Source of the DNA: Archangiaceae bacterium
Lineage (GTDB): Bacteria > Myxococcota > Myxococcia > Myxococcales > Myxococcaceae
Assembly (NCBI GenBank): GCA_043750125.1
Contig: JAYVCD010000275.1
Coordinates: 1-12,142, forward strand
Reading direction: 5' to 3'
Length of the DNA: 12,142 nucleotides
Shown: positions 2,213 to 8,944 of the stretch, in pieces
Layout of the letters: every line of letters begins with the position of its first letter
Position numbering within the stretch: position 1 is the first letter of the stretch
Made by a program: the position numbers and the translations under genes
Notes under the pieces: model-generated
Databases searched by the model: none
What the model saw: the letters and a program-made list of their open reading frames with translations, nothing else
What the model was told of the DNA's origin: nothing

Positions 2213-3421
2213 TCACCCCTGCAAATCCGCGAGTCGTCTCTTCATCAGGTCGATCAGCAGCTTCGTGGTGCGGGGCTCGAAGCCGATTTCTTTCACCCGG
2301 GCGATGAAGGGCGCGGCCAACCCGATCATCCGATCCAACCGCGAGGCGATCGCCCTGGCTGGCAGGTTGAAGCGCCGACCAAAATCGATCAGGTGGGCGC
2401 GCTTGAGGTTGTCGTCTCGGCCTTCGATCTTCAGCGCGAGGTGAAGATCAAGGTAGGGCCGGGTCGAAAGCACGTCGTAGAGCGGACTGAGCTGAAGCGA
2501 GTTGTGAGCGGCGCTGACGCTGATGTTCTTTCCGTGCAGATCTCCGTTGCCAACCAGGTAGCTGAAGGCAGTCAGGTCGATCAACCGAGCGCGTTCAGCG
2601 GCCGGTGAATCGCAGACCTCGAGCGCTTGCGCGACTTCGTGGGTCTTCAGGTTGTACTTGTCGGCGGGGTACCGATTGAGGAATTGGCACGCGTCTTCCT
2701 GGTGGATCCCGCGCCACTGCCTGCCCTTGCGTTCGCGGTCGAAGCGCTCGACCAGCAAGCCTGCTGCGTTGTCCTTGTCTCTGACGAGGAAGGTTTTTGC
2801 GGCGTCGAAGCCGCAGGCCGTGGCCATGGTCATGAAGAAGTGTTCGTTCTCCACCAGCAGCGGCTTGTCCGCGGGATTCAGCTTCAGGATCCACCGTTTG
2901 CCGGGCGTGGCGAGGGGAATCGAAATGACCGAGGGAGACAGCTTGTCCTGCACTCCGGGAACGGAAGGCTCATGGCTCGACCCGAGGCTGATTCGGAAAA
3001 GCTCTCGAAACGAGACCTGGTCCAGAGGGCTTCGCTCTTCGAGCTCCGTCTTGAAAGGCTCGACTTTTTCCCCTGGCAGAATCGGAAACAAATCGCCCAC
3101 GCAATTCGACCCCGCAGCGACAAGCAGGGTGAAGAGGTCGTCCGCAGATGTCTTGGTGCGGGCCAGCAGCGAACGCAGCCGCAGCCCCTCGGGAATGAGC
3201 CCGGCGAAGTAGGTGTGGAGGTTGACCCCCTGAGTCTCGATCGTCTTTGGCGCGTAGGGCAGATGAAGGGCCAGACCGCCGGGAAGGTCGTGGTGCGCCT
3301 CGTAGAACGCGGTGTCGTATTCGAACACCGCACCTCGAGGCGTCCGACGCAGTTCACCGGCACGGATGGCGTTTCGGTAGATGTCGATGGCCTCGACGCT
3401 GCGTGGATCCCCCGAGGTCAT
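2213..3421 (-). CDS. hipA: HipA-family serine/threonine kinase toxin with fused N-terminal (couple_hipA) domain, 402 aa
   Basis: Gly-rich loop SVPGVQDK, WILK lysine, ENEH, LLVERFDR, HQEDACQ, catalytic GNGDLHGKN and LSPLYD. The ATG at 3421-3419 overlaps the hipB TGA (ATGA), so it is preferred over the ORF-track start at 3445. Confidence 0.93.
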   Translation of the reverse strand: MTSGDPRSVEAIDIYRNAIRAGELRRTPRGAVFEYDTAFYEAHHDLPGGLALHLPYAPKTIETQGVNLHTYFAGLIPEGLRLRSLLARTKTSADDLFTLLVAAGSNCVGDLFPILPGEKVEPFKTELEERSPLDQVSFRELFRISLGSSHEPSVPGVQDKLSPSVISIPLATPGKRWILKLNPADKPLLVENEHFFMTMATACGFDAAKTFLVRDKDNAAGLLVERFDRERKGRQWRGIHQEDACQFLNRYPADKYNLKTHEVAQALEVCDSPAAERARLIDLTAFSYLVGNGDLHGKNISVSAAHNSLQLSPLYDVLSTRPYLDLHLALKIEGRDDNLKRAHLIDFGRRFNLPARAIASRLDRMIGLAAPFIARVKEIGFEPRTTKLLIDLMKRRLADLQG

Positions 3422-3735
3422 TTCGTCAGTGACCCGGAAATCCAATCGCCCGCGACGACGACTTCCCCTTCCGGGCGGCCGCTGCGTACCTCGAGCTTCA
3501 GCCCCAGCGCGTCAAGCACCGCCAACAGCTTGCCCAACTGCACCGTCGACTTGCCCCGCTCGAGGTCGTAGAGGAAATCGGGTCCACAATTGGAAAGCTC
3601 GGCCAGCTGCTTCTGGGTGAGTCGCAGAAGCTTCCGTCGCTTGCGAACGATGGCGCCGAGCTCCGTGGCCCACGCGCCGGGGCTCGACTCAGAAGTCAGC
3701 GCAGACTCGGCCGATCGGCTGGATTTGGGCCTCAT
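3418..3735 (-). CDS. hipB: HipB-like XRE/Cro HTH antitoxin and transcriptional regulator, ~105 aa
   Basis: LGAIVRKRRKLLRLTQKQLAELSNCGPDFLYDLERGKSTVQLGKLLAVLDALGL is a typical HTH_3/y4mF-type domain. It lies directly upstream of hipA with a 4-nt overlap. ATG at 3735 chosen over the upstream ORF-track start at 3840. Confidence 0.88.
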   Translation of the reverse strand: MRPKSSRSAESALTSESSPGAWATELGAIVRKRRKLLRLTQKQLAELSNCGPDFLYDLERGKSTVQLGKLLAVLDALGLKLEVRSGRPEGEVVVAGDWISGSLTK

Positions 3736-3742
3736 CCCGGCC

Positions 3743-3771
3743 ACCTTAAAGACCAAATCGACAAGATTCAA
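3743..3771 (-). promoter_or_regulatory. Putative sigma70-type promoter of hipBA
   Basis: Minus strand reads TTGAAT (3771-3766), a 17-nt spacer, then TAAGGT (3748-3743), ending 7 nt before the hipB ATG. Confidence 0.5.
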
Positions 3772-3799
3772 TCCGAGCGCATGGATTGTATGGGGGGGA

Positions 3800-3837
3800 C
3801 GGCTGGTTGGGGGCTCGACTTCCCCGCAATCCAGCCG
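3800..3837 (-). terminator. Imperfect GC-rich hairpin downstream of the cupin gene; possible terminator or insulator
   Basis: On the + strand CGGCTGG (3800-3806) pairs with CCAGCCG (3831-3837), TTG with CAA and GGGG with CCCC, with two bulges. No U-tract, so the call is weak. Confidence 0.25.
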
Positions 3838-3879
3838 CACGACCGGAAAACGTTTCGGGACGGAAACTGCGACAGACGC

Positions 3880-4951: not shown

Positions 4952-7900
4952 TCAGCCCCCGGTTCTCCAGATGCGTACCCCACTGACGCCATTGCCGGTG
5001 ACCAGGTACAGCCACGACGCGGCGCCGAAGGTGAGGGCCCGCGCATCGAAGATTTGCCGATTGATCGCCGCTGCCCCGAGCCCATTGCCGCCCAGCCCCT
5101 GACACCCTACGACGCCGGCGACGCAGCCCAGCGCGCCGGTGAAGTCCGCCCGGGTCGTCGGTGTCGCCGCCATCGTCTTGAAAATCTGCACTCCCATCGG
5201 GTTGTTGAAACCCACGAAGAGCGTGGTGGCGGTGGCGGCGAGCAGACCGATCGAGTTGTTCGCCGCGTCGTTGAACTGCGACAGCTGGCCGTCGCCCTGG
5301 TTGTTGAACGCGATCAAAGACCACTCGGAAGGGGCGCAGAAGCCATCGACGCCCGGATCGCACACCCACAACTGCGGTCCGCTCAAGGTGTTGCGGGCGG
5401 CGTACAACCGGCCCTGGTAGCTGACCAGCGCGGGGAAGGCTTTGTCCGAAGGAATGATCTCGGACATCTTGGTCGAGGTCTGCGATGTCTTCGACGTGTA
5501 GCCCGCCGCGGTCGGTGTGCTCAGGGACCAGTCTGCAGGGGAAACCACCGGGCTGACGGGGGTGGCGGTGGTGGTTCTGATGATGCCCCCGTTGTTGGCG
5601 ACGTAGAGGCGATCGTTGAAGTCGGTGAGGGCGTCGATCATCACCACCGGGGTGGTGTTTCCACCAAACTGACCCAGCCCCGGCATCCGGCCGCTTTCGA
5701 GGTCGAGCACGTCGGTGCTAGCCAACAGGCTCTTGCTGACCACGGCGTTGAGTCCGGGCGTCGGTACCGGGGACAACAACGACAACAGATAGGGCCGAGT
5801 GCCTCCCGAGTCGGGGAAGCCCAGGTAGAGCCGGTTCTTGAACGCGTGCGCGGCTGAAATTCCTTTGGTGCTTCCCCCGAGTGCCGCCGAAATGTCCACG
5901 AACCGGAAGTTGAGCGTCGAGGCCGTGTCGTTGGACAAATAGACGTAGTTGATGGCGCCGTTGAGGTTCGCTCCAGCGATGCCCAGGAATTCGATTCCTT
6001 GAAGCGTGCCCGAGAAAAAGATTCCACGACCGTTCTCGTTGTGCGGGCCACACGCAGGCGTGTTGGCCGTGCAACCCAAAGTGCCGATCGACGGGTAGGG
6101 GGCCGCCGACGTGTTGGCGTGGCTGGTGCCGCCGTTTCCTACGTCGCGGGCGAAAGCGAAGGCGTAGTTGGCGGCACCGGTTCCGTCGGGATTCATCGCC
6201 ACTGCGCCGAAGCCCGTTTTTCGCGGTCCGAGCCAGACCTTCCCCGCATACGAAAAGATGTACGAGAACGCAGTCGCGTCTGCGAAGGGGTCGGTGGCCA
6301 GCAAGGTCACTTCGCCGCCCATCGCGGCGAGGTTCGAGGTGAGCGGACCGGTGCTGAGCGGCTTCGCGTCGTTGGCGTCCGTGCCGCTGGCGCTCCCCGA
6401 GACCTGCGCGGTTCCCGTCGTCCCCGCGGCCAGAACCCAGGTGAAGGTCACGCCTCCATCGGCAGCGAGCGCCGCGGTGGCGGGCACCGGCCCCGAGACC
6501 ACCGTCGCGCTGCCCGAAACCACCAGCGCCGAAGGAGTGACCGACAGCGCCACCGCCTGGCCCGAGTTGGTGACCTGCATCGTCGCGTTGAATTGCGAGG
6601 CAGGCGCGACCGAGGGGGGAATCGAGAGCACTCCGTCCAGGCGTGCTGGGCGATCGACCTGGATGATCGCCGAGCTCGCCAGCGCAGCCGTCACGGGCAT
6701 CGCGTCAATCGCGTCGGTGCCGGACGGACGCGCCTGGAACCCCAGCGGGCCGCCCGCCGACGCGGCGCTGGTGTAGACGAAAGATCGCAACCCACCCGGG
6801 GGAATGTCCCCAGCGGTGGGCACCGGCCCCGCGTCCGGGATCAAGATCGCGCTGCCCAGCACGGCGATCGGGCCGGGGCCAACCAGCGTCGCCATCGAGT
6901 CGCCGGCATTGGCCACCTCGAGCGACCACCCGAAGCTCTGCCCGACGTTGACCCGCGCCGGGGTGGTGAAGGTGGCCGTCAGGCTCGCCCGTTGCCCGAC
7001 GACGAGCGTGCCGCCCATCGGGGCCGCGTTCACCGGCAGGCCCGAATATTCGTCGGATCCCCCGGCGCCCACGGTCAGCTGCACCCCGCCCCGGGTTGCC
7101 CCGTCGAAGACCCAGACGAAGCTCACGGGCGAGCCCCCCACCGCCGCGGGCCCCGGGGCAGAGACGAGACTCAACGCTCCGACGCCGCTGAGCGCGAGGG
7201 TCGGGACGACCGCGAGCGCTCGCGCGTCACCCGAGTTGGTGACCATCGCCGTGAGGGTGAAGCGCTGACCCACAGCAATGCGAGTGGCGCTCTGAGTCAC
7301 TGCGACCGCCAGCTGCGCAGGGTTGATGATGTTCACGGTCTCGACCGCGGGGGACATCGCCACCGTGGCCCCGGTCAGCGCGTCCAGACCCAGCGCATCG
7401 ACCCGAAAGGACACCGAGCCCGTGGCGAGGGTATCGAAGAAAAACGAGAACGGCTGCTTTGCCCCCACCGGGACATCGCGCTTGAGCGGAGCGTTCTTCA
7501 AGTCCACCCGTGCCGGCGGTGTCGCGACCGCGGTGGGCAACAGATCTCGAACAGCCACCCCTCCGACGTTGGTCGCCTCGAGCACCAGCTCGATGACCTG
7601 CCCCCGACTGACCGTCTTCTGCGTCGCCACCAGCGTGCTGATGATGTCGGGGGGAGGCACGATCTGCACCGCCGTGGACAGGGGCTCCACCCGCACCTCG
7701 AGCCCCGTGCGTTGATCGACGCCCCGGGCCTCGGCCCAGAGCACCTCGTCACCCACTTTCGTGCTGACCCAGGTGAGCTCAAAGCGGGTTGACTCGCCCG
7801 GCTTCAGCGACATTTGCCCCAGGCTCACCCCGAGCGCGGTGACTTCCGCCGAGCCCATCGCGGGAAGCTGGAGCGGGCCGATCATCACCACCGGGGCATC

Positions 7901-8359
7901 GCCCACGTTGGTCAAATCGAGGTGCGCGACGATCTCTTTGAGCACCCGCACCGCGCTCGCCCCGGTCGAAAGCGTGGCGATCAGCCTGCCCCCACGGCGC
8001 GGCAAGATTTCCAGCGCGTCCTCGAGAACGGTCGATTGCCCATAAGGGTCGACCAGGCGCACCGCCTGCTTTCCCAGAGGCAGCCCGGCCGGGACCACCG
8101 CGGTCAGCGTCTTCGAATCGACCCATTCGACCGGGTTCAACTTCTGGTCTGCCACGAAGACTTCGAAGGCCGGGTTGACCGAAACGTCGCCGGTGCCGCC
8201 TCCCCATCGCACGCTCGCTTTCGGGGTGAAGAACTCTCCGAGCAGCCGCGCGGGGGTCGCTTCGTCGACGAACGAGGTCGCGGGGCTGACCTCGTCCAGC
8301 CGGGGGGGATGCCCGGGCTTGCCCGCCGACGTGCAGCCGACGAGCGTGAAAAGCAGCAC
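4952..8359 (-). CDS. Large surface lipoprotein (~1135 aa): lipobox, IPT/TIG domain, five Ig-like (CARDB/DUF11-type) repeats, and a LigB-like C-terminal domain
   Basis: LVGC lipobox; TIG-like segment (LDEVSP...WVDSKTLTAVVPAGLPLG...VRLVDPYG); five repeats each with an (T/A)NxG motif; ~450-aa beta-rich C-terminal domain with three close Cys pairs. The start codon is uncertain. Confidence 0.88.
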   Translation of the reverse strand: MLLFTLVGCTSAGKPGHPPRLDEVSPATSFVDEATPARLLGEFFTPKASVRWGGGTGDVSVNPAFEVFVADQKLNPVEWVDSKTLTAVVPAGLPLGKQAVRLVDPYGQSTVLEDALEILPRRGGRLIATLSTGASAVRVLKEIVAHLDLTNVGDAPVVMIGPLQLPAMGSAEVTALGVSLGQMSLKPGESTRFELTWVSTKVGDEVLWAEARGVDQRTGLEVRVEPLSTAVQIVPPPDIISTLVATQKTVSRGQVIELVLEATNVGGVAVRDLLPTAVATPPARVDLKNAPLKRDVPVGAKQPFSFFFDTLATGSVSFRVDALGLDALTGATVAMSPAVETVNIINPAQLAVAVTQSATRIAVGQRFTLTAMVTNSGDARALAVVPTLALSGVGALSLVSAPGPAAVGGSPVSFVWVFDGATRGGVQLTVGAGGSDEYSGLPVNAAPMGGTLVVGQRASLTATFTTPARVNVGQSFGWSLEVANAGDSMATLVGPGPIAVLGSAILIPDAGPVPTAGDIPPGGLRSFVYTSAASAGGPLGFQARPSGTDAIDAMPVTAALASSAIIQVDRPARLDGVLSIPPSVAPASQFNATMQVTNSGQAVALSVTPSALVVSGSATVVSGPVPATAALAADGGVTFTWVLAAGTTGTAQVSGSASGTDANDAKPLSTGPLTSNLAAMGGEVTLLATDPFADATAFSYIFSYAGKVWLGPRKTGFGAVAMNPDGTGAANYAFAFARDVGNGGTSHANTSAAPYPSIGTLGCTANTPACGPHNENGRGIFFSGTLQGIEFLGIAGANLNGAINYVYLSNDTASTLNFRFVDISAALGGSTKGISAAHAFKNRLYLGFPDSGGTRPYLLSLLSPVPTPGLNAVVSKSLLASTDVLDLESGRMPGLGQFGGNTTPVVMIDALTDFNDRLYVANNGGIIRTTTATPVSPVVSPADWSLSTPTAAGYTSKTSQTSTKMSEIIPSDKAFPALVSYQGRLYAARNTLSGPQLWVCDPGVDGFCAPSEWSLIAFNNQGDGQLSQFNDAANNSIGLLAATATTLFVGFNNPMGVQIFKTMAATPTTRADFTGALGCVAGVVGCQGLGGNGLGAAAINRQIFDARALTFGAASWLYLVTGNGVSGVRIWRTGG
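6321..7993 (-). repeat. Five tandem, diverged ~110-aa Ig-like protein repeats
   Basis: Asn codons of the NxG motifs start at 7909, 7570, 7237, 6910 and 6568 (spacing 339, 333, 327, 342 nt). Each unit also has a GxD motif near its end. An identical 15-mer CCCGAGTTGGTGACC occurs at 6561-6575 and 7230-7244. Confidence 0.8.
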
Positions 8360-8428
8360 TCCCTGCCATCTGCTGCGTGGGACCCAGAAAATCAGACGGA
8401 CACCCGCGCGAGTTGAAACAACGCTGGG

Positions 8429-8539: not shown

Positions 8540-8944
8540 CTACGGCGACTGGTAAGAGTAGTCGCTGCCCGCTTTGGCGCAGTCGGCCATCACGTCCGCG
8601 CTGGTGTTGAGCGTGACCGGGGCGGTTGAAGTCCCGACCACGGCTCCGGGGAAGTACCAGGTGATGATGCTGGCGCCGGCCATGATCGCCGCTTCGTCGG
8701 CCTTGCACCCGCCGATCGAGCCCGACCGATCGCAGGTCGTGGTGGCGGGCACTCCGCTGTTCTGGGTGCAGCTGCTCTTGACCGTGGTGACCGTCAGCGT
8801 GCTCTGGCCGATGTAGTCGAAGCACTCTTTGCGCGCGGCGTACTTGCAGCTGGTGCTGCCGGTGGCACCCAGTCCCGGAATCACGTTGCCGCAGGACATC
8901 GTCAAAAGCAGGGCCAGAGCGACGAGGGTGAGGCGCGAGGTCAT
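8540..8944 (-). CDS. Small Cys-rich lipoprotein, 134 aa, function unknown
   Basis: C-terminal part of the 8540..9574 track ORF. AAGGA RBS before the ATG at 8944, signal MTSRLTLVALALLLTMS-C with lipobox, and six further Cys in the mature part. Confidence 0.82.
   Translation of the reverse strand: MTSRLTLVALALLLTMSCGNVIPGLGATGSTSCKYAARKECFDYIGQSTLTVTTVKSSCTQNSGVPATTTCDRSGSIGGCKADEAAIMAGASIITWYFPGAVVGTSTAPVTLNTSADVMADCAKAGSDYSYQSP

Follow-up and report, generated by a model that had tools for sequence, protein, structure and literature searches.

What is the tail of a leptospiral surface protein doing in a free-living myxobacterium? In pathogenic Leptospira, LigB is a leading candidate both for vaccines and as a virulence factor, and a preliminary description of a 12,142-bp stretch of DNA from an Archangiaceae bacterium (GenBank assembly GCA_043750125.1, contig JAYVCD010000275.1) had claimed that the last ~450 residues encoded by one of its genes resemble the LigB C-terminus. 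This stretch, referred to below as the window, is a whole contig (C275) of a genome bin of 6.17 Mb in 460 contigs that is 89% complete; its GC content is high, at 0.61–0.70 per kb. The gene lies on the minus strand at 4952..8395. We are nearly certain that it encodes a lipoprotein of about 1147 residues, composed of a lipobox, a module of ~105 residues, five CARDB-type repeats and a ~450-residue domain homologous to the end of LigB and LigC; that this domain and the LigB tail are both predicted beta-propellers; and that they belong to a large family which is not covered by the family models searched and sits almost always at the extreme C-terminus of its proteins.

The resemblance to LigB extends over the entire domain. 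In BLASTP, the window domain aligns collinearly with the tail of L. noguchii LigB (positions 6–451 of 454 against 40–576 of 580) with an E-value of 2e-53 and 28% identity. The complete window protein matches a 1892-residue Big_2 protein of L. tipperaryensis with an E-value of 8e-61 and 30% identity (661–1132 against 1358–1888) and a 1631-residue Big_2 protein of L. santarosai with an E-value of 5e-57. Overall, identities between window and LigB sequences amount to 28–33%. The motifs that had been singled out are all present in the order given: DPFADATAF..GKVWLGP..NPDGT, SIGTLGC..CGPHNENGRGIFFSG, NYVYLSNDT..LNFRFV, IDAL..FNDRLYVANNG, IPSDKAF..YQGRLY, PQLWVCDP..C..WSLI, GFNNPMGVQIFKT, NRQIF and GN..VRIWR. 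The LigB counterparts that had been listed turned out to be real: L. noguchii LigB contains, in the same order, NPFGDG, IYLGPN, GCGPDNEDGRGVF, LDFKY, IPADKAF, NGKLY, PQLWKCDP, GFDNENGIQIWRT and NRQIY, and the register of the window motifs is kept at IYLGPN, GCGPDNEDGRGVF, IPADKAF, PQLWKCDP, GFDNENGIQIWRT and NRQIY. On the evidence of BLASTP, family search, structure prediction and fold matches, the domain was mapped to 4955..6304 on the minus strand (aa 686–1135). Since it begins near aa 686 (nt 6304), the extent of 4952–6320 proposed earlier was accurate; the domain ends two residues before the stop.

The leptospiral reference proteins come from nine Leptospira loci, which were fetched using the tail of a family member (P0220) as the query. 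In a 1932-residue open reading frame of L. noguchii (L008), residues 1027–1128 match PDB entry 2MQG, deposited as LigB, with an E-value of 1.2e-46, and 88 of 102 residues are identical by a hand count of the alignment; by this match, the reading frame is identified as LigB. L. noguchii and L. borgpetersenii each possess a second domain-bearing locus, with open frames of 1958–1963 residues and 54–58% identity to LigB, and the sequences of these loci are consistent with LigC. Judged by its sequence, the terminal domain of the window protein is a true homologue of the last ~500–545 residues of LigB and LigC.

The cysteines of the two proteins also correspond. The window protein has seven: the lipobox cysteine and three pairs with an i/i+7–8 spacing, which are confined to the terminal domain. 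Cys763/Cys770 (6050..6073, minus strand) belong to the family's most conserved motif, GC...CGPxNExGRG, which in the model lies in the loop joining blades 1 and 2; its C, G, P and E are conserved in at least 90% of the rows of both alignments made (A1 and A2), and the column of C770, the partner of C763, reaches 90% over all rows. Cys1000/Cys1008 (5336..5362, minus strand) lie in the PQLWxCxP...C...W motif in blade 5 and are conserved in both clades of the family described below. Both pairs align with LigB cysteine pairs, the second with PQLWKCDP...C, as had been expected, and both presumably form disulfides. A third short-range pair, Cys1079/Cys1086 (5102..5125, minus strand), occurs in the high-GC clade, whereas the aligned LigB segment is devoid of cysteines. 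Across the domain, 35 positions are occupied by an identical residue in at least 80% of the rows of both clades, among them G759, C763, G771, P772, Y807, D909, R989, the QLW.C.P block with C1000, C1008 and W1013.

That the domain would be beta-propeller-like had been proposed earlier, and AlphaFold2 predicts a propeller for the window domain as well as for the LigB tail. The model of the window domain, based on a 47-row alignment, is all-beta with a mean predicted local distance difference test (pLDDT) score of 95.9 and a predicted template modelling (TM) score of 0.94. For the L. noguchii LigB tail (545 residues, 52-row alignment), these values are 87.0 and 0.89, and only the loop 235–277 scores below 50. 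Read by eye, the strands assigned by DSSP form seven four-stranded blades, the last of which is closed by the N-terminal strand, and seven x-[RK]-L-Y-x-(G/A)-type motifs, likewise found by eye, mark the blades in the window sequence. With the window model, Foldseek against the PDB returned beta-propellers exclusively, with query-normalised TM-scores up to 0.48, and the exhaustive VIA-align comparison gave Z-scores of 24.2–21.6 across the best 50 entries. Among these matches were the LRRK2 WD40 domain, virginiamycin B lyase, Cdc20, integrin alphaM, the lectins PLL and BP39L, YncE and leptospiral Lp49. The LigB-tail model matches the same set of propellers with Z-scores of 24.3–21.5, and it is by these common PDB matches that the likeness of the two models was judged. 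The alignments comprise ~270–345 residues, with root-mean-square deviations of 2.7–3.6 Å and sequence identities of 4–13%. The flatness of these lists indicates a generic seven-bladed propeller without a specific solved relative. A sequence search of the PDB found no solved relative of the propeller and no match covering the LigB tail, and none of the named propeller repeat families in Pfam-A (WD40, Kelch, NHL, YVTN, SBBP and others) matched the window protein or the LigB tail at E≤1. The window domain resembles solved seven-bladed propellers in fold (Z 21.5–24.3), but lacks a sequence-family match to them, and ~110–170 of its residues, including the conserved disulfide loop, fall outside the aligned core.

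Does the domain constitute a family of its own? An existing family would have removed the novelty claimed for it, but in the local copies of Pfam-A (24,736 models) and NCBIfam 20.0 no model covers the domain in the window protein, in the Big_2 protein P0082 described below, or in LigB; NCBIfam gave no family match for the window protein and three Lig-type proteins. The best Pfam match of the LigB tail is a sub-threshold one to CBM65_1 (E 0.018). The newer Pfam accessions PF26918 and PF25852, which lie outside this copy, are annotated on one match each (P0082 and P0083) and might touch the propeller. The ESM Atlas returned only unnamed clusters (0.93–0.94), with recognition below the trusted level (1485), and was not used as evidence. 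Of 8000 candidates scored in a word-indexed search with aa 682–1135, 86 matched at E≤1e-3, the best of these being 61–66% identical across the domain. Most of the 86 cover 94–100% of the domain, yet their Pfam listings are empty or contain Ig-like families only. With a collinear alignment to LigB, a common predicted fold and no described family among these models, each of the findings that could have told against the original proposal came out in its favor.

The matches also bear out the idea of a wider domain that occurs in environmental cells, as they come from named Myxococcota and from metagenomes. All organism-named proteins among the 86 are of the Myxococcota type (Archangium gephyra, A. 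violaceum and Aggregicoccus sp., as well as bins named Myxococcaceae, Myxococcales, Polyangia, Kofleriaceae and 'Deltaproteobacteria'). One protein, P0082 (1812 residues), has at least nine Big_2 repeats (266.8 bits) followed by the same terminal domain, which is the Lig architecture, and matches the window domain with an E-value of 7e-54. When its tail was used as the query, 29 proteins were found, including 1892-residue Big_2 proteins of L. sanjuanensis, L. ellisii and L. tipperaryensis, a 1631-residue protein of L. santarosai and a 1929-residue protein of L. inadai. An exhaustive phmmer search of 1.84 billion representatives gave 360 matches at E≤1e-3, of which 318 were at E≤1e-10 and 215 at E≤1e-30. 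Architectures were counted in 263 proteins, including 29 near-identical Leptospira cluster members. The hidden Markov model of the domain matches 261 of the 263, with a full-length domain in 236, and in 233 of these 236 the domain ends no more than 20 residues from the C-terminus. The preceding segment measures 0 to 2599 residues (median 569) and is built from CARDB, DUF11, DUF7507 and BatD in the high-GC clade and from Big_2 or Calx-beta in the Leptospira-type clade. The domain is a member of a large family outside the local Pfam-A and NCBIfam models that is mounted on interchangeable Ig-like stalks. Its distribution is patchy: it was found in 30 of 301 sampled genomes (20 of 137 genera) of the window's phylum and in 41 of 301 sampled Spirochaetota genomes.

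We constructed two unrooted trees of the domain. For the first, made with FastTree, the 29 cluster members and P0001 were dropped, the 209 domains were thinned to 132 at 60% identity, and the window and six of the nine Leptospira loci were added, giving 139 rows. This tree separates 20 Leptospira-type from 119 high-GC rows with a local support of 100. The second was a 'quick' IQ-TREE run under LG+C20 with 59 rows, made up of the six Leptospira loci together with 13 further members of the Leptospira-type clade and, on the high-GC side, the window, 29 rows (14 picked at random) and 10 domains from relatives' loci. It recovers the same split, 19 versus 40, with a Shimodaira–Hasegawa-like approximate likelihood ratio (SH-aLRT) of 99. 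In both analyses, the clades were flagged as differing in composition. Inside the high-GC clade, the window domain falls together with P0002 and P0004 (support 98 and 100). Of the proteins from the relatives' loci, one is identical to Aggregicoccus P0019 and a second branches as sister to a protein of Archangium gephyra, which places the window's family (f1) among myxobacteria of the Myxococcaceae type. The Leptospira-type clade also includes very long proteins, P0223 and P0227 (2749–3072 residues) and P0204 (2463 residues), and Calx-beta repeats occur in that clade; P0204 comes from a bin named 'Deltaproteobacteria bacterium'. Given these long Calx-beta proteins and the 'Deltaproteobacteria' member, the clades do not correspond strictly to one phylum each.

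The remainder of the window protein resembles Lig proteins in design and differs from them in its parts. The stalk (6320..7987, minus strand; aa ~125–680) comprises five CARDB/DUF11-type Ig-like repeats of ~111 residues each, as judged from a Pfam score and motif spacing. The score belongs to one repeat: CARDB (PF07705) matches aa 349–432 with 28.6 bits, above the gathering threshold of 22.7 bits. The other four repeats were recognized by motif and spacing alone, with the (T/A)N(V/S/A)G hallmark occurring at aa 150, 263, 374, 483 and 597. Close homologues show matches to CARDB, DUF11, DUF7507 and BatD. Self-BLAST of the stalk did not detect the repeats, so that the copies must be divergent. 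Big_2 (PF02368), which is present in 12–13 tandem copies in Lig proteins, gave no match at E≤1 in the window protein, and the complete Pfam scan of the protein yielded only CARDB, DUF11 and a sub-threshold Trs65 Ig match. Ahead of the stalk lies a beta-rich N-terminal module of ~105 residues (7994..8308, minus strand; aa ~18–122), for which no Pfam match was found at E≤0.1 and no family could be assigned; the sole hint is that the distant homologue P0086 shows a sub-threshold TIG match (18.4 bits versus a cut-off of 20.9, E 0.0022) at the corresponding place.

At its N-terminus, the protein carries a lipobox, L-V-G-C (8333..8344, minus strand), which, like the signal peptide, was read by eye. 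It comprises aa 6–9 of the open reading frame as listed (4952–8359, 1135 residues from a GTG start), and lipidation is predicted at Cys9, with which the mature protein would begin; equivalent lipoboxes exist in the homologues P0003 and P0004. With the GTG at 8359 as the start codon, however, merely eight residues would precede the lipobox cysteine, and the reading frame continues open upstream. An in-frame CTG at 8395 or ATT at 8392 would give a signal peptide of 20 residues with two arginines, matching the TTG-started one of a paralogue remnant in the same genome and that of P0004. Because the GTG start makes the signal peptide too short, whereas starting further upstream, where the paralogue has its TTG, yields one of normal length, CTG or ATT is probably the true start. 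The product would then be a lipoprotein of ~1147 residues, as predicted from its sequence.

Side by side with LigB and LigC, then, aa 686–1135 are collinear with the leptospiral extension and share its motifs and two cysteine pairs, and both tails are predicted to be seven-bladed propellers. Both kinds of protein have an N-terminal lipid anchor, which is predicted in the case of the window protein, and the domain is found at the far end of a series of Ig-like repeats. In contrast, the Lig stalk consists of 12 Big_2 domains plus weak Big_5-like modules, according to PMC7821625, and that of the window protein of five CARDB-like repeats. LigB has ~90 residues of insertions, including the low-confidence loop, and lacks the third cysteine pair. 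Its weak Big_5-like segment (E 0.011) is missing from the window protein. The absence of the defining Big_2 array, which was tested for, places the window protein outside the Lig proteins; it follows the same design, combining a lipid anchor and the shared propeller head with a stalk built from a different Ig-like family. The low-confidence loop of the LigB model (residues 235–277; the locus is L008 6001–7635) is a Lys-rich insertion of ~43 residues that is absent from the myxobacterial domain and is the only part of the model predicted with low confidence.

What, then, could the propeller do? A ligand-binding tip domain had been proposed, for instance for prey or surface attachment, and its position at the tip agrees with the N-terminal lipobox and with the C-terminal placement in 233 of the 236 full-length cases. 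Together with the variable Ig-like stalks, these two features argue for a head on a stalk, and the occurrence of the three cysteine pairs in the head only argues for an extracytoplasmic location. From position, modularity, disulfides and the literature on the LigB fragment LigBCtv, we consider it reasonably likely that the propeller is the binding head of a stalk-and-head surface lipoprotein. The protein would be exported and lipidated, after which the Ig-like repeats would act as an extended stalk that keeps the disulfide-stabilized propeller distant from the membrane as a distal binding head, i.e., an adhesin or receptor. The GC..CGPxNExGRG disulfide loop and the invariant Tyr and Arg residues would be its likely functional surface, and the protein as a whole would work like a Lig-type 'stalk and head' surface protein. 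In integrin-like adhesins and those of the invasin/intimin type, a rod of Ig-like domains connects the membrane anchor to a globular head at the distal end. The architecture of the window protein would by analogy follow the same logic, but its predicted anchor is an N-terminal lipid rather than a beta-barrel, and its head is a predicted propeller rather than a C-type-lectin-like domain.

For LigB fragments, PMC2839090 and PMC7821625 report binding to host matrix or plasma proteins, and the only experimental hint of a binding head comes from one such fragment. LigBCtv (aa 1418–1889) binds fibronectin weakly, with a Kd of 8.55 µM, as well as Madin–Darby canine kidney (MDCK) cells (Lin and Chang 2008; PMC2839090). 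We mapped the LigB extension of ~770 residues as ~260 residues with a weak Big_5 signal (E 0.011), followed by the propeller from ~aa 1387 in L. noguchii. By homology mapping, LigBCtv, which contains most of the propeller, starts ~30 residues inside the domain, and may therefore have been misfolded. This possibility and the low affinity for fibronectin weigh against a binding head, as do several other observations. The start codon is either non-canonical or the signal peptide too short. Among the fold matches, unrelated propellers (WD40, lectins, integrin alpha, a lyase, YncE) score nearly alike, so that the fold cannot distinguish binding from catalysis. Finally, in eight of nine relatives' loci the propeller gene has a Big_1/Invasin_D3 neighbor, mostly together with FecR and histidine-kinase genes, and the same holds for another copy in the window's own genome, on contig C51; this cassette suggests sensing rather than plain adhesion.

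In the eight of nine relatives' loci (L017–L025), which stem from several families, a Big_1/Invasin_D3 protein of 600–740 residues adjoins the propeller gene; its last ~170 residues, read by eye, probably form a small beta-barrel and end in an aromatic residue. Beyond this gene, most of the eight loci encode a FecR-domain protein, a hybrid kinase-receiver and a dCache-HAMP histidine kinase, the gene order being dCache-HAMP histidine kinase, hybrid kinase-receiver, FecR-domain protein, Big_1/Invasin_D3 protein and propeller gene. Copies linked to the cassette are scattered across the entire high-GC clade in the second tree. The window's own genome has the cassette on contig C51 (L026 7336–14576), where the propeller gene is a remnant (L002 953–1929, equivalent to G000:C51:47602-48578), shortened by two internal deletions and interrupted by a frameshift and one TGA. 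What remains is the signal peptide with the first module and the beginning of repeat 1, followed by a short propeller piece and, after the change of frame, the last ~140 residues, which are 70% identical to the window. The remnant could reflect true decay or an assembly artefact of the bin. In two relatives, two propeller-lipoprotein genes are arranged in tandem (G110:C12:605892-611536, L019; G092:C351:2-3164), which suggests local duplication and diversification.

On this synteny, the propeller lipoprotein could be the ligand-sensing input of an envelope signaling module formed with the Big_1/Invasin_D3 protein, which is probably barrel-anchored, the FecR protein and the two histidine kinases, so that binding by the head would be relayed to gene regulation rather than serve attachment; the window copy would then be a dispersed paralogue acting in trans or alone. 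The arrangement in the relatives points to surface sensing at least as much as to ligand binding for prey or surface attachment. Yet, the window gene itself has no cassette neighbors: upstream lie a small lipoprotein and a major facilitator superfamily (MFS) transporter, and the kinase fragment downstream (3–587) is on the other strand. Likewise, no homologue of the FecR or Big_1 protein was found by tblastn (E≤1e-3) within 6 kb of the nine Leptospira lig loci. Synteny by itself proves neither a physical nor a functional link. We therefore regard a signaling module as rather unlikely in this specific form, noting that it overlaps with the binding-head reading, since a sensing head likewise binds a ligand.

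An extracellular enzyme, a lyase or hydrolase acting on a polymer or small molecule and tethered via the Ig-like stalk, appears improbable. Virginiamycin B lyase is among the top fold matches (Z 23.6 and 24.3), Foldseek also returned GH74 and GH43, and there are polar residues conserved in at least ~90% of the rows, namely E of CGPxNExGRG, D909 and the invariant Y807 and R989. However, these catalytic matches tie with non-catalytic WD40, lectin and integrin propellers at 4–13% identity, and no enzyme family was matched by sequence. Recent horizontal transfer between Leptospira and myxobacteria, to which the patchy distribution in both phyla and the position of P0204 might be taken to point, and a compositional or chance artefact are both very remote and were rejected: the E-values exclude chance similarity, and the deep split in the two trees, flagged for composition and unrooted as they are, together with the low identity to LigB, makes recent transfer unlikely.

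These results also put the leptospiral proteins in a different light. The extension of LigB and LigC has been drawn as 'putative Big_5 domains' whose structure and function are still to be studied (PMC7821625) and has been called 'largely disordered' (PMC12183334). Our literature search, which did not extend to subscription journals, supplements and the AlphaFold DB or InterPro pages, found no account of the LigB tail as a propeller and no link to myxobacteria. The models suggest instead that about two thirds of the LigB extension would be a well-folded seven-bladed propeller with presumed disulfides, and the LigB/LigC tail would now count as a folded domain from a broad family that also occurs in environmental bacteria. 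This corrects construct boundaries, as the classic LigBCtv fragment begins inside the mapped domain, and it offers the 35 positions conserved across the clades as candidates for mutation. Harmless, cultivable myxobacteria such as Archangium and Aggregicoccus carry members of the family, which should make genetics and biochemistry easier, and the relatives' signaling cassette is a testable lead to the native function of the domain. The window lineage is free-living and high-GC, and the kinase/FecR/Big_1 cassette of its relatives is not seen beside lig genes. A speculative scenario, which we consider rather unlikely, is that the LigB/LigC propeller is an old environmental surface-sensing head that was ancestrally wired to the Big_1/FecR/two-kinase cassette in Myxococcota, whereas in the Leptospira lineage the cassette disappeared and the head persisted on a stalk of Big_2 domains; the native ligand would then be a non-host one, either a polysaccharide or a component of microbial surfaces. 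If so, the weak affinity of LigBCtv for fibronectin would be a by-product, and the propeller would not be a host-specific invention.

Immediately upstream of the propeller gene in the window, with a gap of 144 nt to the CTG start, is a gene for a Cys-rich predicted lipoprotein of 134 residues with a signal sequence ending in LLTMSC (8543..8944, minus strand). It has no Pfam family and was not found with this query in five relatives that carry the propeller gene; it is therefore not a conserved partner. Past it, on the opposite strand, lies the MFS transporter gene. Downstream on the same strand are genes for a cupin-domain protein and a HipA/helix-turn-helix (HTH) pair, followed on the plus strand by a carboxyltransferase gene and the end of a hybrid kinase, the fragment at 3–587. 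The HipA/HTH pair (2213–3840, minus strand) is a toxin–antitoxin pair of the HipBA type, in which a HipA-like kinase of 410 residues with HipA_C and Couple_hipA domains is preceded by an HTH_3 protein.

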